Part shown: piece after piece, positions 26,051 through 56,058 of the stretch
How positions within the stretch are numbered: position 1 is the first letter of the stretch
Layout: each line of letters begins with the position of its first letter
The notes under the pieces: model-generated
Databases searched by the model: none
Told to the model about the DNA's origin: nothing
What the model saw: only the letters and a program-made list of their open reading frames with translations
Assembly (NCBI GenBank): GCA_963704675.1
Contig: OY969928.1
Location: 631,539 to 695,538, forward strand
Direction of reading: 5' to 3'
Source of the DNA: an uncultured Candidatus Saccharibacteria bacterium
GTDB taxonomy: Bacteria > Patescibacteriota > Saccharimonadia > Saccharimonadales > Saccharimonadaceae
Length of the DNA: 64,000 nt
Position numbers and translations under genes: made by a program

Positions 26051-26098
26051 GATATTTTAGAGTCTCAATGAGTTTACCCGTTCGCAAGTAGGAGTGTC

Positions 26099-26578
26099 AT
26101 GATGCCAACAGCCAGGTACAGCAACTACGAGCTCATTATCGAGCTAGAGAACTGCAACATTGACCTGGACGTATTCCGAGCAACACCAGAAGATTTCCTT
26201 GCACAGCTACGAGAACGCCGACGAATTCCCGATGGGCTGCGAGTGCTCATCGCCAAGCTGTTCCAGCAGAGGGTGATCACAGGCTGCGTCATTACTTATG
26301 GCAAGACAATGACGCTCCGGCTATCGCCGATTTGCCCGTCTGGCCACGATTTGCTACTGGATGGGGCTCTTGAGAAGTTTAAGGAGGTATACACCAGCAT
26401 TACCAAACAGCCAATCACGGTAGGCTGGGAAAGCTCAAGTAAAAAACGTTTTCTTTCGCGCAGGTCGCGGCGTGACTGTAGTGGAATCCTGGGAGGCATC
26501 GTTCAGATTGTTGACCTGGCCGCTGATGCAGTTGTTGCCGCTGCTGCCCTCAAGGAACTATTCGGCGATTCAGAGTGA
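26099..26578 (+). CDS. orphan hypothetical protein, moderately GC-enriched islet
   Basis: 159-aa ORF with an AGGAG RBS. No motif was recognised. Confidence 0.45.
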   Translation: MMPTARYSNYELIIELENCNIDLDVFRATPEDFLAQLRERRRIPDGLRVLIAKLFQQRVITGCVITYGKTMTLRLSPICPSGHDLLLDGALEKFKEVYTSITKQPITVGWESSSKKRFLSRRSRRDCSGILGGIVQIVDLAADAVVAAAALKELFGDSE

Positions 26579-26583
26579 ACTCT

Positions 26584-26615
26584 TGCGAGGGGCGGTCAGC
26601 TGACCGCCCCTCGCA
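26584..26615 (+). terminator. perfect 16+16 palindrome after the orphan ORF
   Basis: tgcgaggggcggtcag|ctgaccgcccctcgca with no loop spacer and no U-tract. Confidence 0.6.
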
Positions 26616-26662
26616 GAGCCCTGTCAGAAAGTTAATATTTCTATTAATTATCATTATTTAAT

Positions 26663-26703
26663 AAATGAAAAGATCCGGTCCGAAGAGCCAGGTCTTTTCA
26701 TTT
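26663..26703 (-). terminator. efp terminator hairpin
   Basis: aaatgaaaagatc / ggtcttttcattt arms lie just downstream of the efp stop. Confidence 0.5.
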
Positions 26704-26711
26704 ACTACCAT

Positions 26712-27278
26712 CTAATCTTTTCGTCGTTCTAAATATTCACCAGTGCGGGTATCTACTTTGATTTCATCACCAGTCTTAATAAAAGCTGGCACCCTAATAA
26801 TGTGATCCGTTTCAAGCGTGACATCTTTTTGCACACTATTTGTCGTATCACCTTTGACGACATTCTCGGCATAGGTCACTTTTAAATACAGGTTTTTCGG
26901 CAATTCAATATTAATGACACGCCCATCAAAGAACTGCATATCAACATTGTCGCCCTCTTTTAAAAATGGCCTGGCGGTTTCAACAAGATCACTTGAAAGC
27001 TGAAACTGCTCAAAGCTTCCAGGGTCCATAAAGTGATAATCATCGCTATCTGCATACAAGAATTGTACGGTTCGGTGCTCAACAGTTGCGGGCTCGATTT
27101 TATCAGCACCTTTAAAGGTTTTTGGCAAAACACTGCCATCAATCAAATTCTTCAAACGAACGTTTACAATACTACCACCGCGGCCCATCACTTTTTGCGA
27201 ATATTCAATCACACGAAACGGTTTGCCGTCCAGTTCAATTACTTGCCCTTTTTTAAGATCAGTTACACCAAGTGCCAC
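26712..27278 (-). CDS. efp: elongation factor P
   Basis: 188 aa. ..DLKKGQVIELDGKPFRVIEYSQKVMGRGGSIVNVRLKNL.. is the typical EF-P N-terminus. Confidence 0.9.
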   Translation of the reverse strand: MALGVTDLKKGQVIELDGKPFRVIEYSQKVMGRGGSIVNVRLKNLIDGSVLPKTFKGADKIEPATVEHRTVQFLYADSDDYHFMDPGSFEQFQLSSDLVETARPFLKEGDNVDMQFFDGRVINIELPKNLYLKVTYAENVVKGDTTNSVQKDVTLETDHIIRVPAFIKTGDEIKVDTRTGEYLERRKD

Positions 27279-27291
27279 TCATTACTCCAAA

Positions 27292-27588
27292 TTACATGTG
27301 TTTAAATGTTTCGTGTATATCACGATAATGGTCACGGAAGGCCACTAAGTCGTTCGAGCTTATGATGTTCGTGCCGTTGTGGCTCAGCTCCTCTAACCGC
27401 CTATGAAGCCCCTCCGCGCGAACCGCAAGCTGGCCTGGGTTTTCCCCTGATTCTATTGCTTCACGAAAGCTTTTCGCACTCTGCTGTATTTGAGAAGCCA
27501 CAGGGTCGTGCGGTACATCCCACGATCCATGCATGCGGTCTTCCAGCTGCCGCGCTTGTTGACGTAACTGTGAGTATTGCGAATTCAT
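27292..27588 (-). CDS. small helical hypothetical protein
   Basis: 98-aa ORF between efp and rpsR, with no motif. GC is slightly elevated (hand counts 30/60 and 33/60). Confidence 0.4.
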   Translation of the reverse strand: MNSQYSQLRQQARQLEDRMHGSWDVPHDPVASQIQQSAKSFREAIESGENPGQLAVRAEGLHRRLEELSHNGTNIISSNDLVAFRDHYRDIHETFKHM

Positions 27589-27639
27589 ATTATCCTCCTT
27601 GCTTAATTTCAGTTTACTGGGGCGAGCAGTGCAAGCAAA

Positions 27640-27843: not shown

Positions 27844-27864
27844 TAGTTATCCTTTGTTCAGTAA

Positions 27865-28344: not shown

Positions 28345-28347
28345 AGC

Positions 28348-28683: not shown

Positions 28684-28698
28684 AGTTCCTCCTATGGA

Positions 28699-28716: not shown

Positions 28717-28752
28717 GCGCTTTTTGTTAGCGCAGGTTAATTTACAGGTGTA

Positions 28753-28781
28753 ATTGTATCATGATCCTACCGTTTTTACAA
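28753..28781 (-). promoter_or_regulatory. candidate promoter of the rpsF-ssb-rpsR operon
   Basis: Minus strand: TTGTAA, a 17-nt spacer, then TACAAT. Confidence 0.45.
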
Positions 28782-28874
28782 TTCTGGCAGCTTACAACCT
28801 CAATCCACTAATCAGAAGAAATACTGTTGTAATTTTAGGGTTTACTCATAAAATTTATTTGCTATACTGCTTAT

Positions 28875-29056
28875 GTCTACACTTAGTCTTGTGCTGAGAA
28901 TTTGTTAGCTATTTTCTCTATTCTTTATCCACTGGCCGAAATGGGTAGCGATTAATAATGCAGTGGATAACCCTGCTAGGTGTAGACACCTTGCAATCGC
29001 TACCCTCACGGATAACTAATAACACAACACACGATAGAGTATCGGTGTTTTTATTT
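28875..29056 (+). promoter_or_regulatory. structured leader: three nested/pseudoknotted perfect stems plus a weak hairpin with T-run, upstream of the tail-fibre-like operon
   Basis: Stem A is 28875-86/28976-87 (12 bp, one G-U). Stem B is 28925-34/28961-70 (10 bp). Stem C is 28943-53/28995-29005 (11 bp). These are followed by acacgat..atcggtgt and ttttattt. Confidence 0.4.
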
Positions 29057-29077
29057 GACGCAAAAAAATGGAGGAAT

Positions 29078-29704
29078 ATGTCAAGACTACCAATACCCGG
29101 CGCAGACTTTGGAGACTGGGGAGAAATATTAAATGACTTTTTAAAACGCGAGCATACATCAGACGGTGCTTTAAAGATACGTGCTGACGGAACATTAAGT
29201 GGTTTATATAAAAAACCATCAAGCGGCATACCCGAAAACGATCTTGATAGCATTATTCAAAACAAACTGAACACCACTCTGCCCGCATCTACAAGCAGCC
29301 TTGGGGGGATTCAACTATCTGGTGATCTTGCAGGAAGCGCCACTACACCTGTTGTGCCGGCACTTAATACTAAGGCAGATATTGTCGAAGCTGTGAATAT
29401 CATAACTACTAGTAATAGTACCTTGACACTCCCAGATGTAACAACCGCTACCGTTCACGACGTTACACTTACTACCGATCTTATCATTACGCTGCCGACC
29501 CCTAGTGCCGGTAAAAGCTTGACACTTATCGTACGCCAAGATAGCAGTGGAGGACATAGTATTACTTGGCCTCCGGCGGTGAAATGGCCAAGCGGCATCC
29601 CAATGGAATTAACACCTACCGCAAATGCTATTGATGTTATCACATTTCTAGGGTTAAGTTCATCAGCGTGGCTTGGTTTTCAATCAGGATACGATCTACG
29701 ATGA
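29078..29704 (+). CDS. phage tail-fibre/receptor-binding-like protein
   Basis: The start MSRLPIPGADFGDWGEILNDFLKREHTSDGALK follows a GGAGG RBS. In my memory the N-terminal D-x-WG-x-ILN-x-FL..H..DG motif resembles actinophage minor tail proteins. The track ORF start at 28958 is less likely. Confidence 0.5.
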   Translation: MSRLPIPGADFGDWGEILNDFLKREHTSDGALKIRADGTLSGLYKKPSSGIPENDLDSIIQNKLNTTLPASTSSLGGIQLSGDLAGSATTPVVPALNTKADIVEAVNIITTSNSTLTLPDVTTATVHDVTLTTDLIITLPTPSAGKSLTLIVRQDSSGGHSITWPPAVKWPSGIPMELTPTANAIDVITFLGLSSSAWLGFQSGYDLR

Positions 29705-30873
29705 AAGCTGCTGTACGCATGAAGCAGCCGAGTTCAGTGCAGCAAGACTTAGTGATCCGTCGTGTCACCAACGAGCTCGCAATCTTTGGCCAGTGGTTAA
29801 ACAGAAATAACGTTAGAGGAGTTATCTCTGAAATTGGATGGCCTAACAACGCTTATCCTCAACTTTGGAATAATGTCGCTAAAGCATGGTATAGAGAAGC
29901 AAATAAATGGCACCTGCCCGTCCTTGCCTTTACCGCACAAGGCCCTGGCACGAATGTAGCGCAACTCACTATGTACAGCAGGAGTAATGGATCTGTTAGC
30001 GGCGGGCAATCTATAGATAAAGCAAATCAGCAGGCAAAAGTGAGCGAAGCATTTCAAACTACACCAGAATACTGGAGAGGCATTGATATATTCGGCGGTG
30101 CTGCCAACGATGGTGGCGGAGATGGTAACCCCTCTATCATGAATAATGTGCAGCAAAACACCTGGTGGTATGAAACGCCCGGCACATATACCTATTTAGC
30201 GAGTAGAGGTTATAAGGTTGCTCGTATAGGATTTCGATGGGAACGACTCCAACCAACACTAGGAGCTGCTCTCGACACTACAGAGGTAAACCGACTGCAG
30301 AATACTATTTCAAATGCTCAAAACGCTGGCATGCAGGTAGTGCTCGATCTACATAACTATAGTCGCTACGTGACTCCTAGTGGAGTCACTATACTTGGCA
30401 CAGCTCAACTACCGATAAGCGCCTTCATTGACGTATGGAGCCGCATTGCCACCACTTTTCAATCAAATACGGGTGTACTTGCCTACTCATTAATGAACGA
30501 GCCACATGATATGCCTCGAACGCCTCTGGGAGAGCCCTCTGCTAAGCACTGGGAGGCAGCGGCCCAATCAGCAGTCAATACAATTCGCCAAGCTGGAGAT
30601 ACTCACGAAATTCATGTTTCAGTTTATGAATGGGGGCGTGCACAAAACACTCCTCTTCACCATGCCACTGCATGGATCGTAGATCCAGCTAGCAATATAC
30701 GCTACGAAGCCCATCATTATCTCTACTTGCATCACGCTACGGCCATTAATTACCCAGATAGCTTCCAAACAGAGCTGCAAGATGCAAGTGGTATCTGGAC
30801 ACAAGAGATGACTCCAGGAAAACAGTGGGCCAATTACGCCAATTTAACATGGAATCAACTAATAGGAGCTTAG
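29701..30873 (+). CDS. glycoside hydrolase family 5 (cellulase-like)
   Basis: Acid/base region VLAYSLMNEPHD (NEP) and nucleophile region VSVYEWG. There is an ATGA overlap with the upstream stop. Confidence 0.65.
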   Translation: MKAAVRMKQPSSVQQDLVIRRVTNELAIFGQWLNRNNVRGVISEIGWPNNAYPQLWNNVAKAWYREANKWHLPVLAFTAQGPGTNVAQLTMYSRSNGSVSGGQSIDKANQQAKVSEAFQTTPEYWRGIDIFGGAANDGGGDGNPSIMNNVQQNTWWYETPGTYTYLASRGYKVARIGFRWERLQPTLGAALDTTEVNRLQNTISNAQNAGMQVVLDLHNYSRYVTPSGVTILGTAQLPISAFIDVWSRIATTFQSNTGVLAYSLMNEPHDMPRTPLGEPSAKHWEAAAQSAVNTIRQAGDTHEIHVSVYEWGRAQNTPLHHATAWIVDPASNIRYEAHHYLYLHHATAINYPDSFQTELQDASGIWTQEMTPGKQWANYANLTWNQLIGA

Positions 30874-30877
30874 AAAT

Positions 30878-31522
30878 ATGGCAACCTTTACACCAAACCT
30901 CGAATTAAAACAACATAACCCCAACGATCCTATTGACCCCGTTGATGCCTTTGCAAGTAACTTCGGTAAGATATCTGGGCTATATCAAGACGGCAATTCA
31001 ATATCAAATGGCATTTCGACATGTGACCGACGATTTGCAGATGGAACTATTACCCCGATCTCGGGCGAAATATACTTTTCTTATTTTACCTCGCCTCGAG
31101 GTAGCTTGAGCGGCGGCATTGTTTCTAAAATCGAATTAAGAACTGGTTCCCAGATTGCCAGTGGAGTAACCCTTGCACGTATTGGGCTTTATACTGTCAA
31201 TTCCGGTGATCAAGCATTAGCTCTCGTTGCCAGTACCGCAAATGAAACCAGCGGCTGGACAACTACTTTCACTGGTGTTGTTAAAAATCTTTCTGCTACC
31301 TATACGCTACAAGTTGGCAAACGCTATGCTCTAGGGGTTCTATTTGTGGCAACAACACCACCCAGCTACGTCCGCTACAAATGTAGCACCGATTTCGCTC
31401 TCAATGCTGTTCCCCCTCGCTTATGCGGCAAATTAGCCAGTCAATCTGACCTGCCTACCAACATCGCAGATAATATACTTGCGACAACTAGCGGAGGAGG
31501 CTTTGTTAGCCTTTTGCCATAA
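30878..31522 (+). CDS. hypothetical protein with phage tail-fibre-like N-terminus
   Basis: MATFTPNLELKQHNPNDPIDPVDAFASNFGKI resembles the TPNLGL..P...D......N...ID motif seen at N-termini of tail-fibre-type proteins. This is from memory. Confidence 0.4.
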   Translation: MATFTPNLELKQHNPNDPIDPVDAFASNFGKISGLYQDGNSISNGISTCDRRFADGTITPISGEIYFSYFTSPRGSLSGGIVSKIELRTGSQIASGVTLARIGLYTVNSGDQALALVASTANETSGWTTTFTGVVKNLSATYTLQVGKRYALGVLFVATTPPSYVRYKCSTDFALNAVPPRLCGKLASQSDLPTNIADNILATTSGGGFVSLLP

Positions 31523-31555
31523 GGATTTTATATCTGTTAAAATTATTAAAAAGTA

Positions 31556-31584
31556 TTGACATTACTCAATTATTATGTATAAAT
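31556..31584 (+). promoter_or_regulatory. near-consensus sigma70-type promoter in front of the glycosylation island
   Basis: TTGACA (31556-61), a 16-17 nt spacer, then TG-TATAAA(T). The context gtaTTGACa is shared with two other islet promoters. Confidence 0.5.
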
Positions 31585-31712
31585 GTAAGGAGCTTATAGA
31601 AGGCCAGCCCGAACAGGGCTGCTTTTTATGGGTGAAGGCGCTCTCGCTCAAAAAGCTAGGGGCCGCCTTTACAATTTGAAGTGTAGACAACGTTCTTTGA
31701 AAGGACTTCGTT

Positions 31713-34355
31713 TTGACGTCCCAGCAAGCCCCTGAGTATAGCGGCAAGAAGCGCAAGCTTCTGTTCGCTGCCGTGGGAATAACTGTAATGTTGCTCAGCT
31801 TTGTCGAGCTTTACGTCATGATCAGCATTTTCGGCATGGAAGCGTGGCTAGCCTACGCTATTCAGACAGTGCTGAGCGTGGAGCTCAACTTCGCGGGCAA
31901 CTGGATTCTCACTTTCCGTGACCGGAGACGCGAGAACAGCATCTGGAAGTCTTTACTGCTGTTTCACGCGACGCGAGTGTTCACCATCCCGTTCAACCAG
32001 GTCCTCTTCACCCTCCAGGTGTCGTGGGTACCGGTGTGGGAGTGGACAATCACAGCACCGTGGCCCATCAATCTCCTCGGAGAAAGCGGTCCGATCCTCA
32101 TTGCGCAAGCGGTGTGTATCGTCGCTACGACTGTTCTCAATTACGTCGCCGGTGACAAGCTGGCGTTCGGAGGAAAGTGGGCAAAAAAAGACTCAGCGCC
32201 GACGACATCACCGTTGCCGGCGCCAGAGTTGCCTGACAACCTTCCTTTCGTCAGCATCGTCATACCTGTTAAGAGCTCAGTGCCAACAGATACCCTGGAG
32301 GCACTTTGTCAGCAAACCTACCCCGGAGGCAACTTCGAGGTCATTGTGGTTGGCGACCTGGGCAGTCCAAGCCTTGCATCCATCAGGGAGCTGGACGTTC
32401 CATTCACTCTACAGGTACTCGAAGTTCAGGTTCGTACGCCGCGGCGTGATTCAAACGCCAAACGCGGGCGTGGTCTGAAAAAGGCGATCGGTGACATATT
32501 GGTCGTCATTGACGGTGACGTACTCCCTCGAAAGGAGTGGCTCTCACGAGTCGTCTCGCATCTTACCGTTGGCGGCCACCAGGCAGTCGCCGGCCCGCTC
32601 AGCGGGCACGGTGACTCTTGGTGGAATCGATACATCGACCACAATCGCATAGCCAGCAAAACACCTCGCATGACGACCGCTTATGAGGTCAACGGGTCAA
32701 ATACGCATCGCCGTAAGTTGCCCGTAACGGCTAATTTCGCGTGCCGCCGTGAGGTCTTCGAAAAAGTTGGCGGTCCGGATACTCGCTTCACCAATTCGTA
32801 CGAGGATTATTCGTGGTTCGAAACAATTGTGCAAAATGGCATAACCATTTACTGTGACCCGACGCTGGAAACCCCACGTCATCACCGAAGTGGGCTGTGG
32901 TCACTTCTCGACGAGTACAAGCGTTCAGGCATGGGCTGTGCTGACTTCATCGTCGCCTTCCCTTCCTCGCGCTTCGCTCGGAAACGAATTGTCCAGATCG
33001 TTTGCACAGCCGGTATCAGTATCGGCACCTTGGTGTGTGCATGGCTTAACCCCCTGCTGCTCACCGCGTTCGGTCCGTTCCTGGTACTAATCATGCTAGC
33101 CAACTGGGTCAACACAAAACGCACAGCAAGTCTCGCCTACCCGTTCGTGACCCTACTGCTTGCGAGCAGATTCCTACAAGGAGTATTCTCGCGCTTCCTG
33201 CGACAAGGCTTCCGTCACCCCACGGATTCCTATGTTGTTGAGGAACGATCATCGTTCACTGCCGGAGAAGCAGGCTGGCCATCAGTGAGCGTCGTAGTGC
33301 CCGTCAAGGATCGCCCTGGAACCATCCGCTCATTGGTTAACTCCTTGCTCGCCCAAGAATACAAGGGCGACATAGAGATTATCCTCGTGGGCGATGTGGG
33401 TGATACCACCTGGAATCCCATTCGATCCCTGATCGAGAAAGGGAAGATACGAGCCATAGAGGCTGATGTCGAATCCGCTGGACGTGATGCAAACGCCAAG
33501 CGTAATGTTGGTCTCACGGCTGCTAAGGGCGAGGTACTGATTCTCACCGACAGCGACATGGTTCTACCAAGTCACTGGCTTGAGAAGGGTGTCACGCTCA
33601 TGCGTCGGTCTGGCCACAAGATCGTGGCGGGGTCGATGCGAAGCGTAGAGGCAGCCGTCGAGAGCTCTTCGAGTTTTTGGGGGATGTACACCGATCTCAA
33701 TCCATTCGGAAGTAAAACCCCACGGATGGATCCAGCGTACGTCATTACGCCGCATAACCTCGGAAGGGGGAAAGAAAAGCCACCAATTACCGCGAGTATG
33801 TTCTTCGCACGCGAAGTGCTAGAAGCAACTGGCGGTCTCGATGCAAACTTTACCTCTCCGTACGAGGATTACCCCTTCGCCGATCAGATTATCGACGCAG
33901 GCTACTCGATCCTCTGCACGGATGAGCTGTCCGCCTACCACTACCATCGCGACGGCCTAAAGTCTCTCACCAAAGAGTACCTTCAGGCTGGTATCGGCTG
34001 TGCGGATTACATCCGCACATATCGCACCTCCCGATTTGCTGCAAAGCGTCTCGGGCAAGCGTTCGCGATGACTCTGTTCTTCATGACTGGCATTACGGCA
34101 ATGTGGCTGCTGCCCTTGGCAACAACGGCGGCTAGCTTCATCGGTATCACAGCGCTGGCTGGACTCAGCTGGCAGAAAACGAAACGCCCCATCGCGGCAA
34201 TCTTTCCGATCATCACAACTTACCTCGGCACTGTCTTCTACGTAGGGATAGTGACGGGAGCTGTAAGACGGTTTTGGTCAACCCAACCCGATACCCACAT
34301 CGTTGGAATACGGGAGATAACCGCAACGTTGGCACTGGAGGAAGACCATGTCTAA
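31713..34355 (+). CDS. fusion protein: GtrA-like N-terminal domain plus two tandem (GT2 glycosyltransferase + TM bundle) modules
   Basis: 880 aa with a TTG start. GtrA-like ..VLSVELNFAGNWILTFRDRR. GT2 module 1 is FVSIVIPVKS..VIDGDVLP. GT2 module 2 is VSVVVPVKDR..LTDSDMVLP. Each module is followed by GSKTPRM..YEDY..GCADF/Y..SRFA.KR and TM helices. Confidence 0.7.
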   Translation: MTSQQAPEYSGKKRKLLFAAVGITVMLLSFVELYVMISIFGMEAWLAYAIQTVLSVELNFAGNWILTFRDRRRENSIWKSLLLFHATRVFTIPFNQVLFTLQVSWVPVWEWTITAPWPINLLGESGPILIAQAVCIVATTVLNYVAGDKLAFGGKWAKKDSAPTTSPLPAPELPDNLPFVSIVIPVKSSVPTDTLEALCQQTYPGGNFEVIVVGDLGSPSLASIRELDVPFTLQVLEVQVRTPRRDSNAKRGRGLKKAIGDILVVIDGDVLPRKEWLSRVVSHLTVGGHQAVAGPLSGHGDSWWNRYIDHNRIASKTPRMTTAYEVNGSNTHRRKLPVTANFACRREVFEKVGGPDTRFTNSYEDYSWFETIVQNGITIYCDPTLETPRHHRSGLWSLLDEYKRSGMGCADFIVAFPSSRFARKRIVQIVCTAGISIGTLVCAWLNPLLLTAFGPFLVLIMLANWVNTKRTASLAYPFVTLLLASRFLQGVFSRFLRQGFRHPTDSYVVEERSSFTAGEAGWPSVSVVVPVKDRPGTIRSLVNSLLAQEYKGDIEIILVGDVGDTTWNPIRSLIEKGKIRAIEADVESAGRDANAKRNVGLTAAKGEVLILTDSDMVLPSHWLEKGVTLMRRSGHKIVAGSMRSVEAAVESSSSFWGMYTDLNPFGSKTPRMDPAYVITPHNLGRGKEKPPITASMFFAREVLEATGGLDANFTSPYEDYPFADQIIDAGYSILCTDELSAYHYHRDGLKSLTKEYLQAGIGCADYIRTYRTSRFAAKRLGQAFAMTLFFMTGITAMWLLPLATTAASFIGITALAGLSWQKTKRPIAAIFPIITTYLGTVFYVGIVTGAVRRFWSTQPDTHIVGIREITATLALEEDHV

Positions 34356-35832
34356 TATCAGACACCGCCACGCAGCAACCGTGGTAGGCAGTAAGGCGTT
34401 CTTACTCATCGGAGCAGTCATTGTCGTGCTCGGCGCTGCGCTCCGCTTCATCAACCTGTCCACTTGGCCGGGGGTGGAGTGGGACGAGAACGTCTACCGA
34501 GTAGTCGGTGAGCACGTCGCCCAGGCCGGTGACATCACCGCCAAAACCGAATACCTGGCCGCCGCTGAGCCGTACCTCTATCACCCGCCGTTCCACTTCG
34601 TGGTACTGGGCGGATGGTTCGAGATCTTTGGTTCATCGCTCCTGGCAGCTCGGGCACTTGCCGTTGTGGCATCTCTTGTCATGATGGTGGTGCTCAGTTA
34701 CTTCCTACGCTGGATGATCGGCAACTGGGCACTCCTGGCCGTCGGTCTCATCACCGTCGACGTGTGGATGATCTTCTCGAACCGCGTCTCGTGGATCGAG
34801 AACATCATGATCCCCGTGGGGATCATTGGCCTGTGGCTGTACCGTCGGGGCAGCGAGAAACATTCTTCTCGACTGTTCATCGCGGCCGGGATCGTACTTG
34901 GTCTGGCCGTCGCCTACAAGCACATCGGGCTCATTTTCCCGCTGGCTGTGGGCATCTGTTGGCTGCTCATGCGCAGACTTCACAACCTGCACGTGAAACT
35001 GTTCGCTGCTTTCGCGGCAACAAGTGGCCTCTACGTGGCTGCAATGGCACTGATCTTCGGCAAGGTGTACTTCGAGCAATCCGGCATCCAGTTCTTCCGT
35101 AGCACTGGAAGTCGCGAGTCTCGGGGTGCGCTCAACCTGAGCAACGTCATCACGCCGCTCGTCGATCAGTATGCCGTCTTCGTTGCAACCATGGTACTCG
35201 CGCTGGCGGCCGTGGTCCTGCTCCTGGTGCGCACTGCTCGAATCATCCAGCAGCGTAGCCTGGTCAGCCTGCAGCAGCACACGCTACTGTATGCTTGGGC
35301 AATGGCAGCACTGCTGTTCTTCCTGGTCCTCCAACTCCGTTTTCCCCACTACTTCATGCTCATGCTCATCCCACTGTTCTGCTATCTCGTCGCCGAGATC
35401 AAGTGGTTCAGCGAGAAGAGGCGTGCCAACGGCTCCAACCCCGCAGAGATGCGCAGGGTGATCGCGATCTGCGCCGTACTGGCGCTCGCGTTGAATGTCA
35501 ACGCCTTCATCCAGCGCTTCGTTACTCAAACCAGTGACGATGCGTTGACGGCAACGGCGAACTGGATGTCAGCAAACGCGCCGGCAGACGCCAAGGTTAT
35601 CACCGAAGAATCTGTCGGCTCCACCATCGGACAGCCTTACTGCAAGATCTGGAAGGGTGACGGCTGCGTCGGCGCCGAGTACGTGATTGTCTACACTTCG
35701 CACACGCAGAAGATCCCGGATAACCCCGGTCTTCGCCGCCTGATCGCCTCCGCTGGGTCCCCCGTCTTCACGACGCGGGGCTACAAGGAGATGATTACCG
35801 TGTACAAGCTGCCCTCTCCTGTGAGCGGCTAA
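34348..35832 (+). CDS. polytopic GT-C fold glycosyltransferase (PMT_2 / GT39 / ArnT-like)
   Basis: 494 aa with at least 10 TM segments. The first-loop acidic motif is EWDENVY (DE motif). It has a GGAGGA RBS and an 8-nt overlap with the upstream gene. Confidence 0.55.
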   Translation: MSNIRHRHAATVVGSKAFLLIGAVIVVLGAALRFINLSTWPGVEWDENVYRVVGEHVAQAGDITAKTEYLAAAEPYLYHPPFHFVVLGGWFEIFGSSLLAARALAVVASLVMMVVLSYFLRWMIGNWALLAVGLITVDVWMIFSNRVSWIENIMIPVGIIGLWLYRRGSEKHSSRLFIAAGIVLGLAVAYKHIGLIFPLAVGICWLLMRRLHNLHVKLFAAFAATSGLYVAAMALIFGKVYFEQSGIQFFRSTGSRESRGALNLSNVITPLVDQYAVFVATMVLALAAVVLLLVRTARIIQQRSLVSLQQHTLLYAWAMAALLFFLVLQLRFPHYFMLMLIPLFCYLVAEIKWFSEKRRANGSNPAEMRRVIAICAVLALALNVNAFIQRFVTQTSDDALTATANWMSANAPADAKVITEESVGSTIGQPYCKIWKGDGCVGAEYVIVYTSHTQKIPDNPGLRRLIASAGSPVFTTRGYKEMITVYKLPSPVSG

Positions 35833-35839
35833 CACGATC

Positions 35840-35885
35840 AAGGGCCCCGTGCGCATGCAATCAAATGCAAGCGTTCGGGGCCCTT
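35840..35885 (+). terminator. 10-bp perfect GC hairpin after the GT-C gene
   Basis: aagggccccg ... cggggccctt with a 26-nt loop. Confidence 0.4.
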
Positions 35886-35957
35886 TCAAATTGTATAACT
35901 TTAGCCGTTCTGGATTGGGTGTAATTTTCGAATAAAAAGTCTTCAGAAAAGCGCTCG

Positions 35958-35988
35958 CCTGGGGTCGTGGTTTGTCCACGACCCCAGG
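35958..35988 (-). terminator. 13-bp perfect GC hairpin after the Ppm1-like gene
   Basis: cctggggtcgtgg-tttgt-ccacgaccccagg, 12 nt past the stop codon. Confidence 0.6.
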
Positions 35989-36000
35989 CATTGACACCCT

Positions 36001-36774
36001 TTAGCTACTGGCGACCAGCGCACGCCTAGTAGCAAATCGCAACCGCAGCAATTGCCGCACGAATTTGAAGCCCGTGCGAATGTCGCTCTTTGTGTTACCG
36101 GCCGTTCGTTCACCGAACTGCATCGGTAGTTCCAGAATGCGCAGGCCGCGATGAGCACACAGCAGTTCGACCAAGATCTTGAATCCGTCAGACTTCAGAC
36201 GATCAATGTCAACAGCCGAACGACGAAATACGAAGTAACCGGTCATCGGATCGCTCACTTCGCCAAGCAGACGTGGGAACAATAACTTCGCCGCCAAGTT
36301 CGTGCCACGCGAAACAACGTGCCGCATGAACCCGTTCAACCCATCGGCACTGCCGCCACTGCGATAACGGCTCGTCGTGACTACGTCTACACACTCTGCT
36401 ATCTGGAATAGTAGCCTCGAGAGATAGGCGGGGTGTTGACCATCACCGTCAATGACACAAACGTATTCGTCAGTACTGCACATGCGAATACCGTGTACCA
36501 CCGCACCCGACAAGCCGTCGATGCGCTCCGCCCCCACCCGACGGAACCCCTCGACAACAAAACGCGACGTGCCAAACTCGGCAGCCGCGGTGGTAACAGC
36601 ATCTACCGTGGCAGTATTCTTGCTATCATCGATGACAAGCAGGCGAGTTACACCATCCAGCGGTGCCACCGCTTCTCTCAATAACTTCACCAGCAAGCTG
36701 ATGTTCTGGGCTTCATCGATTGTCGGCGCAATGATTGTACGTGTCGGAGCGTTGTGCTCGCGGACAGCAGACAT
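36001..36774 (-). CDS. polyprenol-phosphate glycosyltransferase (GT2; Ppm1/DPM1/GtrB-like)
   Basis: ..LLVIDDSKN..VCVIDGDGQHPP-like (DGDGQHPA)..SDPMTGYFVFRR..GFKILVELL..ERTAGNTK. The start at Met37 (36774) is preceded by GGAGG. Confidence 0.8.
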   Translation of the reverse strand: MSAVREHNAPTRTIIAPTIDEAQNISLLVKLLREAVAPLDGVTRLLVIDDSKNTATVDAVTTAAAEFGTSRFVVEGFRRVGAERIDGLSGAVVHGIRMCSTDEYVCVIDGDGQHPAYLSRLLFQIAECVDVVTTSRYRSGGSADGLNGFMRHVVSRGTNLAAKLLFPRLLGEVSDPMTGYFVFRRSAVDIDRLKSDGFKILVELLCAHRGLRILELPMQFGERTAGNTKSDIRTGFKFVRQLLRLRFATRRALVASS

Positions 36775-37056
36775 CAATACCTCCAAGAGAGCTATGTACT
36801 CCATGCAGCATCTTGACCGCTTTTGCGGATGTCGTCCTACATTATACATTAAACTAAATATTTTGTAAACTAATATATGCAAAAATTATTTCTAAAAGAC
36901 CAAACATATAACGTATTGATCAGCGCCGCGCAGAAAAAGGCCACCTCTATACTTACAGCCAGTATTACTCACAAGGGGCATGATTAAGCGCAACGACTAT
37001 TACGACAACGAGAGTCATATTTACGCCTCAGATGGCACTAACTGGTGTATCGCTGG

Positions 37057-37398
37057 TTAGACGCTTTGCTGCTCTAAGTAATGATGCTCGTTTGCCTTTT
37101 CGTCATCAAAAGCTCGTAAGTGTACGGCAATATAATGGTTTATTTGCTCAACAGCAATAGTGCCAAGCCCTTCAATAAGAACGTGAAGGCCCGGCGTCAC
37201 AGAAAGCTTCTCATTTTTAGGGGAATCACCAGCTGCTTCTCCGTAAACGGCGATCACGTTTTCTGGTAATTGCCCTTCTTTATAACCCATTAAAGCAGTT
37301 TGCGCTAAATCATATAATTCTTGGCCCCGATCGTCAGACTTTTCTCTGGTAGGCTCTTGGTCCAAAGGCCTAATGAGGCCCTCAACAGTTGCTGTCAT
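37057..37398 (-). CDS. hypothetical protein
   Basis: 113-aa ORF with no motif. Confidence 0.4.
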   Translation of the reverse strand: MTATVEGLIRPLDQEPTREKSDDRGQELYDLAQTALMGYKEGQLPENVIAVYGEAAGDSPKNEKLSVTPGLHVLIEGLGTIAVEQINHYIAVHLRAFDDEKANEHHYLEQQSV

Positions 37399-37560
37399 AG
37401 AAGTTCCTATTTACTTACAACAAGAGTAAATCAATAATATACACATATCAAGTGTATATTATTGTCATCTTAACAACAAGTTACGACGATTCCCCATTTA
37501 TTCTAGGCACTTGTTTTTAAAGTATTAACAATATAAAGATAAACCGTTAATAGATTGTTA

Positions 37561-43441: not shown

Positions 43442-43616
43442 TGACCCTCTAAAAGGTGTTAGGTGATACCACAAGATCGTTAAGCTGCTTAGAGTATAGC
43501 ATAGTTTACTATATTCTCCTATACGAGAATGCTCATCTAGCTAGCGCGATAACGACCAACTATACCTAACAGTGCACATATTCAATGACTTACAGAGAGT
43601 CATCGCCTGGCAAGTA

Positions 43617-43645
43617 TTGACTGATAGTTGTTCGGGTTGTATAGT
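43617..43645 (+). promoter_or_regulatory. near-consensus promoter upstream of the orphan gene 43771
   Basis: TTGACT, a 17-nt spacer, then TATAGT, in the context agtaTTGACt. Confidence 0.45.
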
Positions 43646-43710: not shown

Positions 43711-43727
43711 TCTCGCTGTCGCACAGC
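43711..43727. repeat. left arm of the 17-bp inverted repeat bracketing ORF 43771..44322
   Basis: tctcgctgtcgcacagc is the reverse complement of 44337-44353. Each arm is itself a 5-bp stem with a 3-nt loop. Confidence 0.75.
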
Positions 43728-44336: not shown

Positions 44337-44353
44337 GCTGTGCGACAGCGAGA
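44337..44353. repeat. right arm of the 17-bp inverted repeat
   Basis: gctgtgcgacagcgaga. Confidence 0.75.
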
Positions 44354-44360
44354 GCAAAAT

Positions 44361-44399
44361 GGCGGGTGACCTACGGGTTACCCGCCTGCTTTCGTTTTT
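44361..44399 (+). terminator. intrinsic terminator of ORF 43771
   Basis: ggcgggtgacc-tac-gggttacccgcc followed by tgctttcgttttt. Confidence 0.6.
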
Positions 44400-44452
44400 G
44401 ATCCTTTTCTTCTCCTATAGCTTCATGTATGACATGAAAATATAGGGGAATG

Positions 44453-44505
44453 CCCGTGCGTTCTGAAAATGTGAGAACACACGGGCCAGCCGGGGGTTGC
44501 CCGGC
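44453..44505 (-). terminator. two GC hairpins downstream of ORF 44523..45608
   Basis: cccgtgcgttct..agaacacacggg and gccggg-ggtt-gcccggc. Confidence 0.5.
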
Positions 44506-44522: not shown

Positions 44523-45608
44523 TTAGCGAGCAGGAAGGTTGCGCAGTTGCGCCGCCAGAGCTTCGCCTTGGAAACCTTCGGCAGACTTCTGTTCACCTTC
44601 GATACGAATCCACCACTTGAGGTGGTCGTGTGGCAGCGCAGGCAAGAGACTGCCTTCTGCGACAGCGGCGATCAGCGCTCGCTTCCTTGCCTTCGCTTCT
44701 TCCCTGTCCTTCAACTTGGGGTTAAAAGCACTAAGAGGAATGACCACGCAAGCAGCAGCTTGCCGCTGCTCACCCTCGCCCTTGTAAGCGTAGTTGACCT
44801 TCAACTTCGGGTCAGCTTCGTTCTTCGGTGCCACGAGGCCATCAGGATACGGGATCTCCAGGGGTGCCCAGTCAATCTCCTCGTCACTTTCGGAGACAGC
44901 CGCGAAGTCCTCAAGCTTGAGATGCAAGTCAACGTCGCAGAACTCAGCGAGAGTCGTCACCTTGGCGGCCTTGAGTTTTTCTCGGTAGAACTCTTCGAGC
45001 GAAGGAACCTCCACGTACTCACCCGCACCGCGAAGCACAAGCAGCTCCAATTGCTCCAGCACGTCACGGTTGTGCGAGTGCAGACTCCACCCGCCCAACC
45101 TTTCGGCCAGAAGCTCTTCCAGGATGAGCTCCAGCGGATCGCTTATAGTGATGCGTTCAAATTCGGTGCACACCGCCTGTACCGCTTTTTTGATTGAAGC
45201 AAGCACGGTGGCATGTCTACTATACGAGTTATGGAGCCTTTCGTATGCCTTTTGGATTAGCGCATTGAGGTCGGCAGTCGGGAGTATGTTGACAAGTTTG
45301 TCTCGCTCCATCGAAAGCCGCCGCAACTCCTCTCTTGCATGGAGATTAACTAGAGCAGATGAAGCGTGTTCTAGACTAAGAATTCGCTGCCTTGATCCGC
45401 CACGCGTGGTAACATAAATGTCTCCCCGTGTCGCCGCTTTTATCTCAGGCCAAGTCAACAGTCTACCTTCAGCCTCGGGCATTAGCTCGAGGTTCGCAAA
45501 CAGATAGCCCCGACTAGTAGCATCATACTTTACCACACCGCACATCACACCATCAACGATGATGTCTTCGTCGGCGGGCATGGTGATCTGGGGCTCGGTG
45601 AAGCTCAT
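44523..45608 (-). CDS. orphan hypothetical protein (high-GC islet)
   Basis: 361-aa ORF with an AAGAGG RBS. No motif was recognised. It is convergent with ORF 43771. Confidence 0.5.
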   Translation of the reverse strand: MSFTEPQITMPADEDIIVDGVMCGVVKYDATSRGYLFANLELMPEAEGRLLTWPEIKAATRGDIYVTTRGGSRQRILSLEHASSALVNLHAREELRRLSMERDKLVNILPTADLNALIQKAYERLHNSYSRHATVLASIKKAVQAVCTEFERITISDPLELILEELLAERLGGWSLHSHNRDVLEQLELLVLRGAGEYVEVPSLEEFYREKLKAAKVTTLAEFCDVDLHLKLEDFAAVSESDEEIDWAPLEIPYPDGLVAPKNEADPKLKVNYAYKGEGEQRQAAACVVIPLSAFNPKLKDREEAKARKRALIAAVAEGSLLPALPHDHLKWWIRIEGEQKSAEGFQGEALAAQLRNLPAR

Positions 45609-48082: not shown

Positions 48083-48111
48083 TTGACACTTTTAATCTAA
48101 CATTATATTAT
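48083..48111 (+). promoter_or_regulatory. near-consensus promoter of the WhiB-like gene
   Basis: TTGACA (48083-88), a 17-nt spacer, then TATTAT (48106-11), in the context ggtaTTGACa. Confidence 0.5.
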
Positions 48112-48159: not shown

Positions 48160-48414
48160 ATGGACTGGCGTTACAACAGTGCCTGCCGCGACGAGGACCC
48201 GGATCTGTTCTTTCCCGTGGGAACGAGCGGTCCGGCCATTTTGCAGACGGCGCAGGCCAAGTCGGTCTGCCACCGCTGCACCGTCGCGTCAGACTGCCTG
48301 ACCTGGGCGCTGCAGAGCGGCCAGGACAGCGGCGTCTGGGGCGGCATGAGTGAGGACGAGCGTCGCGCGCTCAAGCGGCGCAACGCGCGCGTTCGCACTC
48401 GCAGCAACGTCTGA
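48160..48414 (+). CDS. whiB: WhiB-like (Wbl) [4Fe-4S] transcription factor
   Basis: 84 aa. Cys pattern C9-x27-C37-x2-C40-x5-C46, GVWGG turn (SGVWGGMSEDER), basic tail RRNARVRTRSNV, and a GGAGG RBS. Confidence 0.85.
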   Translation: MDWRYNSACRDEDPDLFFPVGTSGPAILQTAQAKSVCHRCTVASDCLTWALQSGQDSGVWGGMSEDERRALKRRNARVRTRSNV

Positions 48415-48471: not shown

Positions 48472-48507
48472 GGGTTCGGAAGCTCCACTACTGGAGCTTC
48501 CGAACCC
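48472..48507 (+). terminator. 16-bp perfect hairpin terminator after whiB
   Basis: gggttcggaagctcca-ctac-tggagcttccgaaccc followed by ttttcgatttt. Confidence 0.7.
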
Positions 48508-51200: not shown

Positions 51201-51234
51201 TCTTTCTCCATAATGTCAGTATGGCATGTTTTGC

Positions 51235-51270
51235 GCGGGGCCAGAGACTCATCGCTAGCTCTGGCCCCGC
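51235..51270 (-). terminator. 12-bp perfect GC hairpin after the M23-like gene
   Basis: gcggggccagag..ctctggccccgc, 10 nt past the stop codon, with no U-tract. Confidence 0.5.
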
Positions 51271-51279
51271 GTATCTTAC

Positions 51280-52188
51280 CTACTCATCAGCGAAAAGCGC
51301 TTCGCCGCGCCGGTTGGTTAGCCACAAGGGGCGTGGTCCAACGCGAATCTTGCCCGGGCGCACGTTGTGAAGGCTGAACTCGGGATAATCCTGCCGTTCT
51401 TGGCCGTACAGGCCCGAGAGGCAGAGCCGGTTCTTACGAGCAAAACTCCGGCCGGGGTCGCGGCCACAGTTCGCCGCCATGTGCAGCTGCTGGGGGTCCC
51501 ACAGCGTCGTATCTTCGGGAATGATGACGGTGTGATTGGCCGGATTGAAGTGTTCCCGGCCGATACCTGTCGCCCCGAATGTGCCGATGACATCGCCGGC
51601 CCGCACTGGAATACCCAGCCGACGGAGCTCGTCTTGAGTTTTCATGACACCCGATGGATGCCAATCGAACTCATCCGTTTGAACGGCTGGCAAGTACGGA
51701 ATATCTTCCGCAACCGAGCCCAGGTGAATCAGCTGTGTGGTCAACTTACCGAAACCTGGCACATCAACGTGTTCGTGCTGGATTTCGACAAATAGCCCGG
51801 CACCGCCCCCATAGACAACATCATTCTCAATTCGAAGTGTCAAGAACTGGTAGCTGCACCAGGCGATGCCATCTGCCGGCGCCAGGATCGGTACCCCCAG
51901 CTCCAGACCTTCAAAGTCGAGCGCCTGGTGCGAGTTGTCGTCCCAGCCAATGAGCGGCATCTCGTCGGCAGCATCGAAGAAGCCATTCGTGACAGTCAGC
52001 TTGGAAGCGTCACACTTGCGGAATGGCTGCTTCAAGCATGGCGGTGGCACCACCCGCTCACGCGGTGTTGGGTCGAGTCGCGGACGATGATGCTGGTTTG
52101 ATGCGGCCATTGCCTCGTCAACGCTCACCGAGCCAACGGCTCCGACCGCCACAGCGCCCATGAGGACGCTCCTTCTAGAAGCACACAT
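51280..52188 (-). CDS. Tat-signal secreted M23/LytM-like metallopeptidase (high-GC islet)
   Basis: Twin-arginine N-terminus MCASRRSVLMGAVAVGA..AMAA. M23-like blocks are SHQALDF (HxxxD), GVPILAPADGIA, GLFVEIQH, TQLIHLGS and VRAGDVIGTFGATG. The terminal HxH is not obvious. Confidence 0.55.
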   Translation of the reverse strand: MCASRRSVLMGAVAVGAVGSVSVDEAMAASNQHHRPRLDPTPRERVVPPPCLKQPFRKCDASKLTVTNGFFDAADEMPLIGWDDNSHQALDFEGLELGVPILAPADGIAWCSYQFLTLRIENDVVYGGGAGLFVEIQHEHVDVPGFGKLTTQLIHLGSVAEDIPYLPAVQTDEFDWHPSGVMKTQDELRRLGIPVRAGDVIGTFGATGIGREHFNPANHTVIIPEDTTLWDPQQLHMAANCGRDPGRSFARKNRLCLSGLYGQERQDYPEFSLHNVRPGKIRVGPRPLWLTNRRGEALFADE

Positions 52189-54929: not shown

Positions 54930-55103
54930 AGTGCCTTTTCTCTTTTTTGTTTTGTAGTTAGATTTTATTTCACTGTAGCACAAGCGTTTTTAGCAAGTCA
55001 ATAAAATAGCACAACTTCTTTACAGATATGTGGTTTTTCGCTATAATTACTCTTCGAAGTCAATAAATATATAACTTTTTGTAAGCAAGGATAAAAACAC
55101 CAT

Positions 55104-55502
55104 ATGCCACTTATTCAATCAGCCATTAAACGCATGCGTCAAACAGCCAAGCGACGCGCTCGCAACGTCAGCACTAAGCGTGATGTTAAAAGCGCCGTTA
55201 AAGCTTTTTTTGCCAAGCCAAGTGCTGAACTATTAAGTGCAGCTCAGTCAGAGATCGACACCGCTGTCAAAAAGAATATTTTAAAGAAAAACACTGCCGC
55301 TCGCCGCAAAGCAGCGTTAGCTAAAACCGCAAAAGAAGCTGGCGTGAAACTTGTTGCTGGCGCCAAAAAAACCGCCGCAAAACCAGCAACTGAGAAAAAA
55401 GCTCCAGCCAAAGCCACTACTGCAAAAAAGCCAGCGGCAAAGACAACAGCCAAGGCCCCCACAAAGAAACCTGCCGCCAAGAAATCAATCGCTAAAAAAT
55501 AA
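55104..55502 (+). CDS. rpsT: 30S ribosomal protein S20 with Lys/Ala-rich C-terminal extension
   Basis: MPLIQSAIKRMRQTAKRRARNVSTKRDVKSAVK.., then about 45 aa of AKK/PAAK repeats. Confidence 0.85.
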   Translation: MPLIQSAIKRMRQTAKRRARNVSTKRDVKSAVKAFFAKPSAELLSAAQSEIDTAVKKNILKKNTAARRKAALAKTAKEAGVKLVAGAKKTAAKPATEKKAPAKATTAKKPAAKTTAKAPTKKPAAKKSIAKK

Positions 55503-55510
55503 GATACCTC

Positions 55511-55553
55511 AATCATTAAGAATAGCCTCGTGAAGAGGCTATTCTTAATGATT
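55511..55553 (+). terminator. 19-bp perfect hairpin terminator of rpsT
   Basis: aatcattaagaatagcctc-gtgaa-gaggctattcttaatgatt. Confidence 0.7.
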
Positions 55554-55579
55554 GACAGATTATCATATATAGTTATAAA
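55552..55579 (+). promoter_or_regulatory. candidate promoter of the islet gene 55612; its -35 overlaps the rpsT terminator arm
   Basis: TTGACA (55552-57), a 16-nt spacer, then TATAAA (55574-79). Confidence 0.45.
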
Positions 55580-55611
55580 ATTTACTTACCTCGAACAACC
55601 TGGAGGAACTG

Positions 55612-55968
55612 GTGTTTGACGCAATAACTCGGGCAATCCTGATGATTACGTTCGCAAGCAATATCTACTTCATCCTGACTTTTGTCCCGGCCTTGCAAAA
55701 AAGCAGAGAGGCCCTCAGAACTGAGGAGCTGGGGCCGCGCGGCCGCGACTTCTCTCTGAGCGATTATTGGAAGTCCTGCGGGTTACTTTCACTCCACCTT
55801 GGAAGTGGCTTGGCGATACTCACGCTCATTGTCGTTGGCGTACCTCTTCTATTCCCAAGAGTGGGAGTGTGGATCGCCATAGCGCTGGCGGCAATCGGCT
55901 TTGCCGGTGCAGTTTTCAGCCAGAGACGCTACGCCAAGATCGAACGTCGCCTTATGCCCTCACCCTAA
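55612..55968 (+). CDS. small polytopic membrane protein (high-GC islet)
   Basis: 118 aa with a GTG start after GGAGGA and about 3 TM helices. No motif was recognised. Confidence 0.45.
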   Translation: MFDAITRAILMITFASNIYFILTFVPALQKSREALRTEELGPRGRDFSLSDYWKSCGLLSLHLGSGLAILTLIVVGVPLLFPRVGVWIAIALAAIGFAGAVFSQRRYAKIERRLMPSP

Positions 55969-55998
55969 CTCCAGGACGAGCTTCTGCGTGCGACAGAA

Positions 55999-56038
55999 AA
56001 GACGGTTCAGCACTACTCATGAAGTGCTGAACCGTCTT
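55999..56038. terminator. 15-bp perfect hairpin between the convergent genes 55612 and holA
   Basis: aagacggttcagcac-tactcatgaa-gtgctgaaccgtctt. Confidence 0.6.
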
Positions 56039-56058
56039 CGCACACCCCTAAAGATTCG

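Follow-up and report, generated by a model that had tools for sequence, protein, structure and literature searches.

GC-rich accessory genes in a Saccharibacteria chromosome: putative autonomous transcription units with promoters and hairpins of native type

The 64,000-nt stretch of DNA analysed here (the window, C1:631539-695538) lies in the complete genome of a Saccharibacteria bacterium (TM7, order Saccharimonadales; genome G000), a single-contig chromosome of 1,264,584 bp with 45.8% GC, and holds a set of GC-rich genes, here called islets. We propose, with a probability of roughly 0.6, that the islets are fast-evolving accessory genes rich in G and C at third codon positions (GC3), which stand as autonomous transcription units between conserved backbone operons and use native signals. 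A first-pass annotation had described them as cassettes, in which a GC-rich open reading frame (ORF) and a long perfect hairpin without a U-tract had travelled together from a donor behind a native-looking promoter, and had considered promoter capture and a specific insertion mechanism. As far as the sequence alone can tell, this architecture appears to be real, statistically enriched and ordinary for autonomous transcription units, its parts being of the genome's own types; the promoters and hairpins, being of native type, would be no sign of a foreign donor or of special insertion machinery.

The islets were compared with G001, a genome of the same genus taken whole, and with 80 Saccharibacteria loci. 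Across these loci the gene order holA-rpsT-dhh-(pigL)-truB-rpsO-pnp-udg-rnj-ftsK is kept, and the closest relatives of the window's PNPase belong to Saccharibacteria/Saccharimonadales metagenome-assembled genomes, with identities of up to 79%. Among the 80 loci the spacing of the backbone genes varies strongly (rpsO|pnp, 125-9719 bp, above 600 bp in 67% of loci), and the islets therefore occupy positions that are variable throughout the phylum. None of the window's GC-rich proteins was found in the 80 loci with the conserved backbone order. An assembly chimera was ruled out, given the single contig and the four islets standing at the same syntenic places in the independently assembled G001.

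Results

GC-rich domains with sharp edges

With a GC-rich gene defined by a GC3 above 0.55, in a set of 1442 genes from a simple longest-ORF model, islet genes make up 13.6% of the genes and form about 98 GC-rich patches in the genome. In averaged genome profiles, mean GC is 0.26-0.36 at islet promoters, reaches 0.49 within 40 nt and 0.58 in the ORF, and drops from 0.63 to 0.38 directly past the 3′ end of the islet hairpin. The profiles show that the GC-rich domain coincides with the predicted transcribed segment, from the -10 box to the 3′ end of the hairpin, and they bear out genome-wide two observations made earlier in the window, namely that the promoters lie in AT-rich DNA outside the GC jump and that the ORF shares its composition with the 3′ hairpin, in a sharply bounded unit.

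The islet genes of the window are as follows:
24126-25154, minus strand: LPXTG gene, encoding an LAETG-anchored surface protein, GC 0.64, GC3 0.85; syntenic G001 orthologue 54% identical in amino acids, GC3 0.80
26099-26578, plus strand: i159, 159 aa, GC3 0.57, no Pfam match; G001 orthologue 56% identical
31713-35832, plus strand: operon of a GtrA + 2xGT2 fusion (880 aa, GC3 0.63) and a PMT_2/GT39 protein (494 aa, GC3 0.76)
36001-36882, minus strand: GT2 gene, polyprenol-phosphate sugar synthase-like, GC3 0.58
43771-44322, plus strand: i183, an orphan, GC3 0.73
44523-45608, minus strand: i361, GC3 0.60, no Pfam match; G001 orthologue 42% identical, GC3 0.60
48160-48414, plus strand: whiB, encoding a WhiB-family regulator of 84 aa, GC3 0.85, Pfam E-value 9e-26
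51280-52188, minus strand: i302, encoding a secreted protein with a twin-arginine-like signal (SRRSVLMGAVAVGA), GC3 0.66
55612-55968, plus strand: i118, encoding a small membrane protein, GC3 0.61, missing from G001

The functions encoded are thus those of a surface protein, glycosylation enzymes, a regulator, a secreted protein and a small membrane protein, and further GC-rich genes outside the window islets encode S1 proteases, a GDSL lipase and a Zn peptidase. All nine window units carry a stable stem-loop at most about 30 nt past the stop codon. Two more WhiB-family genes lie at G000:C1:697373-698408, less than 3 kb past the right end of the window, which makes three copies in the genome.

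Stem-loops of one style after islet and backbone genes

When the hairpins downstream of genes of at least 150 aa were scored against shuffles (significant at z <= -3, with a repeat family of about 42 copies masked), 85-87% of islet genes were followed by a significant hairpin, against 28% of co-directional and 48% of convergent backbone genes, a contrast that is inflated because longest-ORF calls leave the operon structure approximate. The cassette description depended on hairpins being commoner after islet than after backbone genes, and they are, about twofold, also when normalised for composition. Significant hairpins follow 73 islet and 148 backbone genes of that size, and a T-run (at least 5 T within the 8 nt after the hairpin) stands behind 14% of the former and 7% of the latter. 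Since 148 backbone genes carry equally significant hairpins, 7% of them with a T-run, the U-tract-less hairpin does not serve as a donor signature. A long, often perfect and mostly U-tract-less stem-loop ends backbone units too, and stem composition alone follows the gene (stem GC against gene GC, r = 0.49). Therefore, the hairpin style is a property of the recipient and no evidence of actinobacterial origin.

The hairpins that follow islet genes in the window are:
24045-24091, minus strand: LPXTG gene, CCTGGAGCGTACGG...CCGTACGTCCAGG, about 90% identical in G001
26584-26615, plus strand: i159, 16-bp perfect GC palindrome 6 nt past the stop, without T-run; G001 has an unrelated 15-bp perfect GC hairpin there
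35840-35885, plus strand: PMT_2, 10-bp GC stem with a 26-nt loop, 8 nt past the stop
35957-35989, minus strand: GT2, 14-bp perfect GC stem, 12 nt past the stop
44361-44386, plus strand: i183, 11-bp GC stem, then a T-rich tail
44452-44505, minus strand: two GC hairpins past the i361 stop
48472-48507, plus strand: whiB, 16-bp perfect stem followed by TTTTCGATTT, a canonical intrinsic terminator by sequence
51234-51271, minus strand: i302, 13-bp perfect GC stem with a 12-nt loop, 9 nt past the stop, without T-run
55999-56038, minus strand: 16-bp perfect hairpin of 50% GC, in all likelihood holA's native terminator, which i118 shares

All seven hairpins that the first-pass annotation had listed are present. 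Its wording, perfect GC stems of 10-16 bp, fits those at 26584-26615, 35957-35989, 48472-48507 and 51234-51271; the 16-bp stem at 55999-56038 is perfect but only half GC, the 11-bp stem at 44361-44386 has one G-U pair, and that at 35840-35885 is a 10-bp stem around its 26-nt loop. The absence of a U-tract was overstated, for it does not hold for 48472-48507 (tail TTTTCGATTT) and 44361-44386 (tail TGCTTTCGTTTTT) and is only partly true of 35957-35989. By their GC hairpin and U-tract, the whiB and i183 hairpins have the form of canonical L-shaped terminators.

Hairpins of the backbone in the window are, for comparison:
3537-3582, minus strand: 20-bp perfect AT-rich hairpin adjoining a tRNA gene (stem scan, Rfam)
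23993-24014, plus strand: native ychF terminator, a hairpin with a T-run when read on the minus strand
26663-26703, minus strand: native efp terminator hairpin, separate from that of i159, with a homologous hairpin in G001
37432-37464, minus strand: 13-bp perfect AT-rich hairpin 3′ of ftsK (stem scan)
55509-55555, plus strand: native rpsT terminator, a 21-bp perfect AT-rich hairpin without T-run

Those at 3537-3582, 37432-37464 and 55509-55555, together with a further one at 16610-16636, lack a U-tract. The window has eight perfect stems of at least 13 bp, where about 0.01 would be expected in a random 64 kb, and perfect stems of 11 bp or more number 149 genome-wide once repeats are set aside. 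In the Rfam scan of the window the gathering score was reached by one tRNA only.

The positions of promoter and hairpin are kept in G001, with the hairpin sequences often turned over or changed by compensatory substitution. A hairpin of at least -15 kcal/mol strength was present in G001 for 34 of the 34 tested islet homologues, with the sequence shared in 9% (backbone, 84% and 18%). The two genomes have homologous whiB hairpins that show a compensatory change of T-A to A-T, each with a T-run behind it. Conserved structure combined with sequence turnover indicates a selected RNA or DNA structure, unlike an insertion scar, and the islet stem-loops may be hairpin-dependent terminators or 3′-end stabilisers under selection. 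The LPXTG hairpin, about 90% identical between the two genomes beside an ORF of 54% amino acid identity, is conserved beyond what a terminator needs.

As members of a REP- or MITE-like family the islet hairpins do not qualify: those of the window are single-copy, and outside the genome's one repeat family the hairpins are mutually unrelated. That family, of about 100 bp and about 42 copies at 80-96% identity (e.g. G000:C1:106590-106700; none in the window), carries two perfect hairpins internally and ends in long inverted repeats (CCAAAAGACCAGCATGTGTCTCTCCAGA...).

Promoters that go with the units

The promoters and promoter-like sites of the islets are:
26035-26063, plus strand: i159, TTGACA-17-TAGAGT, abutting or overlapping the tlyA 5′ end
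31556-31583, plus strand: TTGACA-16-TATAAA upstream of the glycosylation island, doubtful, the -10 box lacking the conserved final T
43617-43645, plus strand: i183, TTGACT-17-TATAGT, 10/12, inside the segment missing from G001
48083-48111, plus strand: whiB, TTGACA-17-TATTAT, 11/12; TTGACA-17-TAGACT at the same position in G001
55552-55581, plus strand: i118, TTGACA-18-TAAAAT, 11/12

Four of these sites had been proposed before, and all four exist, although that at 55552 is to be read as given here, and the role of that at 31556 is doubtful because a terminator-like hairpin with a T-run (31605-31631) precedes the ORF. At a threshold of at least 10/12 matches to TTGACA/TATAAT, a promoter was found upstream of 26.9% of GC-rich genes and 14% of backbone genes, as against 4.7% of shuffled upstream regions, so that the islet promoters fit the native consensus well above shuffled AT-rich sequence, as the first-pass annotation had expected; GC-rich and backbone genes fit one and the same consensus. 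Upstream of the -35 box no conservation was seen genome-wide in either gene class. The 'agta' prefix that had been noticed is no motif (the genome has 48 copies of GTATTGAC, close to expectation, of which only 9 stand between genes), and an extended -35 motif, AGTATTGAC, was rejected as not enriched, with 48 genome copies, 9 of these intergenic. The GGAGG or AAGGAG ribosome-binding sites are present ahead of whiB, i118, i183 and i159.

Capture of a native promoter, the earlier reading, is not general. The whiB and i159 promoters are conserved together with their units in G001: for i159 the spacer through the -10 box and the 5′ untranslated region (UTR) are conserved in the G001 stretch read, outside of which the -35 box lies, and for whiB the two genomes have in common a 5′ UTR element, TGGTACACC, downstream of the promoter. 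The i183 promoter sits 93 nt inside the segment missing from G001. The promoters thus appear to belong to the units. Ahead of the LPXTG gene, a mini-ORF (MKKA-stop) with a strong AGGAGG lies at about 25215-25235 on the minus strand, in an AT-rich leader that is conserved in G001, and may be a leader peptide or attenuator.

Turnover and persistent composition between two genomes of one genus

Backbone proteins of G000 and G001 are about 80% identical and 4-fold sites are near saturation. Homologues in G001 were found for 38% of islet genes, at a median identity of 43-48%, and for 66-71% of backbone genes, at a median of 79%. The LPXTG gene (54%), i159 (56%), i361 (42%) and whiB (about 90%) stand at the same sites in G001, whereas i183, i118, i302 and an 8.3-kb block (28742-37077) are missing at the syntenic sites. 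The block comprises a DUF5907-GH5-214aa operon of normal GC and the GC-rich glycosylation island; on a metagenome contig (L082) its genes occur in changed order, adjoining rpsF. At the i302 site, truB|pigL, G001 holds an unrelated GC-rich unit of two ORFs with TTGACT-17-TATTAT, GGAGG and a GC hairpin. Between pnp and whiB, G001 has two AT-rich ORFs of 139 and 164 aa that are not in G000 (G001:C7:70622-71580, L092:622-1580), and inserts at the hot spots can therefore be AT-rich too.

In 52 syntenic pairs of GC-rich orthologues, GC3 is 0.62 and 0.60 (r = 0.79), and the excess identity at 4-fold sites is 0.34, compared with 0.22 in 702 backbone pairs. Under neutral decay toward a GC3 of about 0.4-0.47, the LPXTG gene (0.86/0.81) and several others would, by a rough estimate, have needed an ancestral GC3 exceeding 1; hence either the GC-richness is maintained or allelic replacement renews it, or else the model is oversimplified.

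The possibility of recent import from an actinobacterium

That ORF and I-shaped terminator were recently imported from actinobacteria and owe their expression to a native promoter, either captured or newly selected, as the first-pass annotation held, we regard as unlikely. Several observations agree with it. The WhiB family is otherwise confined to Actinomycetota and their phages, the window's protein being up to 73% identical to copies of Streptomyces, Tsukamurella and Nocardia and 46% identical to phage copies. The best plasmid-borne relatives of the GDSL lipase and the S1 protease are actinobacterial, at 30-34% identity. The GC domain begins past the -10 box and stops at the hairpin, the last 4 nt of the rpsT terminator arm are the start of the i118 -35 box, and the i159 -35 box abuts tlyA.

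However, no close donor was found for PMT_2, i302, i183, the LPXTG protein and the S1 protease, in searches in which the Actinomycetota genomes themselves were not searched directly. PMT_2 has 19 matches including itself, its nearest relative being 63% identical and both named relatives being Saccharimonadales; i302 is a small and rare family with identities up to 44%; i183 has no homologue among 5.8 billion protein clusters, 300 Saccharimonadales genomes and a phage collection; the LPXTG protein has none outside the genus in the searches made; and the relatives of the S1 protease in JGI metagenomes reach 35% at most. The 73% of WhiB is a family-level match, and the gene is present in 23 of 61 related Saccharibacteria genomes. 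The decay of atypical composition with residence, by which a recent import is known, was not seen, as the 52 syntenic orthologues are as diverged as the backbone at 4-fold sites and have kept their GC3. Backbone hairpins go without U-tracts too, and the promoters are parts of conserved or indel units. Nor did all the hairpins travel with their ORFs, since i159 orthologues bear unrelated hairpins and the one at 55999-56038 is the positional homologue of the holA terminator; it is most likely holA's own, because at the empty site of G001 a hairpin lies 7 nt past the holA stop with the same outer stem, GACGGT/ACCGTC.

Therefore, recent import from a sampled actinobacterium is not supported, while an old actinobacterial ancestry of some islet families is plausible. 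Among the gene transfers detected into Patescibacteria, most have other Patescibacteria as their source (PMC12455944), with which the lack of a close actinobacterial donor agrees. GC-rich relatives occur in other genomes as well: at locus L081 the GtrA-2xGT2/PMT_2 pair is also about 12% above backbone GC, and in L152, with a backbone of about 54% GC, the i302 homologue has 62-65% GC, about 10% above the backbone, with AT-rich DNA upstream and a perfect hairpin of 15 bp.

Insertion junctions and candidate mobilisers

At 54 sites, a G000-specific segment stands opposite a G001 gap of at most 400 bp. About 17 of the sites hold GC-rich genes and 37 hold single genes of normal GC; gain and loss of single genes is therefore general. 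No motif common to the junctions was found. No general target-site duplication was found at the 54 junction pairs, where breakpoints could rarely be placed because most intergenic DNA is too diverged; 4 of the 54 overlap (by 3-28 bp), none exactly as i183 does, which is the one islet with a direct repeat:
43514-43523, unstranded: left copy of the direct repeat TTCTCCTATA beside the i183 unit, single copy at the G001 empty site
44410-44419, unstranded: right copy of TTCTCCTATA
43711-43727, plus strand: 5′-UTR arm of a 17-nt inverted repeat of i183, with its partner at 44337-44353

The i183 unit, 896 bp including the promoter, is bounded by this exact 10-bp repeat, an arrangement compatible with a single crossover at microhomology with a circular fragment, or with a G001 deletion mediated by the repeat. 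Like i183, i361 has an exact inverted repeat of its 5′ and 3′ UTRs (12 nt, GAACTTGAAATT) that brackets the ORF; these repeats may reflect 5′-3′ pairing of the mRNA.

That there is a separate GC-rich compartment, comprising about 14% of the genes with mainly secreted, surface or regulatory products, actively maintained or continually renewed and bounded by the transcript, whose units are exchanged at re-used hot spots by an undescribed mechanism such as circle microhomology integration or retro-insertion, appears decidedly improbable to us. GC-rich inserts as a general trait of Saccharibacteria were ruled out, the variable inserts in the 80 loci averaging 0.03 below backbone GC; the inserts at the same hot spots are not GC-rich in the 80 others. 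The GC-rich compartment is lineage-specific.

Slighter still is the chance that the islets are mobile cassettes with a dedicated mechanism, be it integron- or IS200/REP-like recognition of the hairpin, Campbell-type integration of circles or retro-insertion of mRNA. Retro-insertion would account for a domain that equals the transcript, unrelated GC-rich units occupy the truB|pigL site in the two genomes, the repeat around i183 is exact and occurs once in the empty site, and inverted UTR repeats of at least 12 nt are found in 8 genes genome-wide (5 of the 8 GC-rich) as against none in permuted controls. The architecture recurs in L152. One IS200-like Y1 ORF and one reverse transcriptase lie next to GC-rich orphans. 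Against this, the hairpins are unique, with no shared core and no motif in the flanks of 107 of them (at most 0.12 bit per position, no prominent k-mer), the overlapping junctions include no exact duplication, and no terminal inverted repeats were found at the ends of i183. The i183 indel extends upstream beyond the transcript into promoter DNA, in contradiction to a pure copy of the mRNA, and the normal-GC single genes at 37 of the 54 sites show the same presence and absence. The genome encodes no integron-type integrase and no TnpB was found in it; its only Phage_integrase-family ORF, a Xer-like recombinase, lies at 4338-5243 of the window in backbone syntenic with G001. Of what defines insertion sequences (IS) and transposons, namely terminal inverted repeats, a duplication of fixed length and a transposase, the first were not found at i183, the second did not show as a general feature of the 54 junctions, and the genome's only transposase-like ORF stands far from the window. 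The specific insertion mechanism to which the regularity of the islets had seemed to point is thus not supported by flanks, junctions or recombinase content.

Besides the Xer-like recombinase, the genome encodes ComEC, the Y1 ORF and the reverse transcriptase. The Y1 transposase ORF is partial (207 aa, Pfam E-value 4e-11; L233:3963-4586, plus strand, = G000:C1:1187963-1188586), lies far from the window and is adjoined by two GC-rich orphan genes; it may be a RAYT-type mobiliser of the 100-bp repeat. The reverse transcriptase is stand-alone (462 aa, RVT_1 E-value 8e-19, about 38% GC; L233:7945-9333, minus strand, = G000:C1:1191945-1193333). Saccharibacteria are naturally competent (PMC10633639). 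The simplest reading would be DNA uptake followed by sporadic illegitimate recombination.

Possible active maintenance of high GC

Selection on transcripts or GC-biased gene conversion in frequently recombining accessory genes could keep GC high, which would then be no relic of transfer, the edges being those of the transcribed or converted tract; the GC3 held at near-saturated 4-fold sites, the offset of about 10-14% from the local backbone that the same families show upward in each of four genomes (backbones 45% to 54% GC) and the match of domain and transcript agree with this, but it is very improbable, as no known bacterial process gives such large offsets, the highly expressed backbone genes of G000 are AT3-rich, the variable inserts of the other Saccharibacteria are not GC-rich, and the decay calculation is crude, ignoring codon selection and possible allelic replacement.

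Discussion

Based on these findings, we propose that an islet unit would consist of a sigma-70-type housekeeping promoter that follows the genome's own consensus, a Shine-Dalgarno sequence, one or two ORFs and a long stem-loop 5-30 nt past the stop. Those tolerated between essential operons, often in antisense or convergent orientation, might be the units whose promoter and terminator are both strong; such units would not be read through into the neighbours. New units would arrive or be replaced sporadically, probably via natural transformation and illegitimate or microhomology recombination, and a dedicated cassette recombinase is unlikely. Some families may ultimately be actinobacterial (WhiB and, more distantly, the GDSL lipase and the S1 protease), in which case the transfers would be old. 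The readings of the hairpins as donor terminators, of the promoters as captured and of the insertion as a dedicated process appear not to be supported.

Several points weigh against autonomous units with native signals as a full account. Selection for insulation is an inference; transcript start sites and termination points are predicted from sequence alone; and the islet-versus-backbone contrast is, with approximate operon structure, inflated to an unknown degree. The account does not explain the persistent high GC3, with values of 0.8-0.86 kept in syntenic orthologues near 4-fold saturation. Likewise without explanation are the many stems that are perfect over 13-22 bp and are replaced by other perfect stems, for which template switching is one idea. 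The re-used intergenic sites and the one clean 10-bp direct repeat could be signs of an unrecognised mechanism.

Saccharibacteria have tiny genomes and live as obligate epibionts on Actinomycetota, and their accessory genes, which here encode surface proteins, secreted hydrolases, WhiB and glycosylation systems, are the likeliest host-interaction factors. If the units are self-contained, insulated and provided with native signals, their promoter and terminator parts would be usable in the new genetic systems of the phylum. GC-rich hairpins are not to be taken as fingerprints of a donor. A high GC3 that persists across near-saturated synonymous divergence is not accounted for by standard amelioration theory.

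Among known systems, integron cassettes are usually promoterless, and their attC sites have R''/L''-L'/R' cores with GTTRRRY at the crossover. The islets resemble them as short ORF units that end in an imperfect-to-perfect palindrome, with varied units at the same sites. However, the islets own their promoters and are dispersed on the chromosome, not arrayed, their palindromes have no shared R/L core, and there is neither IntI nor an attI/Pc platform. U-tract-less I-shaped terminators have been described for mycobacteria and other Actinomycetota, and their efficiency is debated; the islet hairpins are alike in the stable GC stem right past the stop, mostly without a T-run, but this genome of 46% GC also uses AT-rich stems of the same style after backbone genes. 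With REP/RAYT and IS200/IS605 elements the genome shares extragenic palindromes at gene 3′ ends, a Y1 ORF and the hairpin repeat of about 42 copies, whereas the islet hairpins are single-copy and mutually unrelated and the repeat family lies outside the window.

The natural transformation of Saccharibacteria (PMC10633639) offers a like route of uptake and chromosomal integration, with ComEC encoded here; that work concerned homologous recombination of engineered DNA, whereas illegitimate integration of foreign genes is what we infer for G000. A further close counterpart are the horizontally acquired or accessory gene islets of Patescibacteria/CPR (PMC12455944). The units described here differ from them in consisting mostly of one gene that has a promoter and terminator to itself, in a GC offset that persists in syntenic orthologues, and in having no donor found beyond the family-level affinity of WhiB, but are alike in their atypical composition, patchy distribution and share of about 13% of the genome, in relatives that are mostly Patescibacteria, and in functions in surface structures, secretion and glycosylation.

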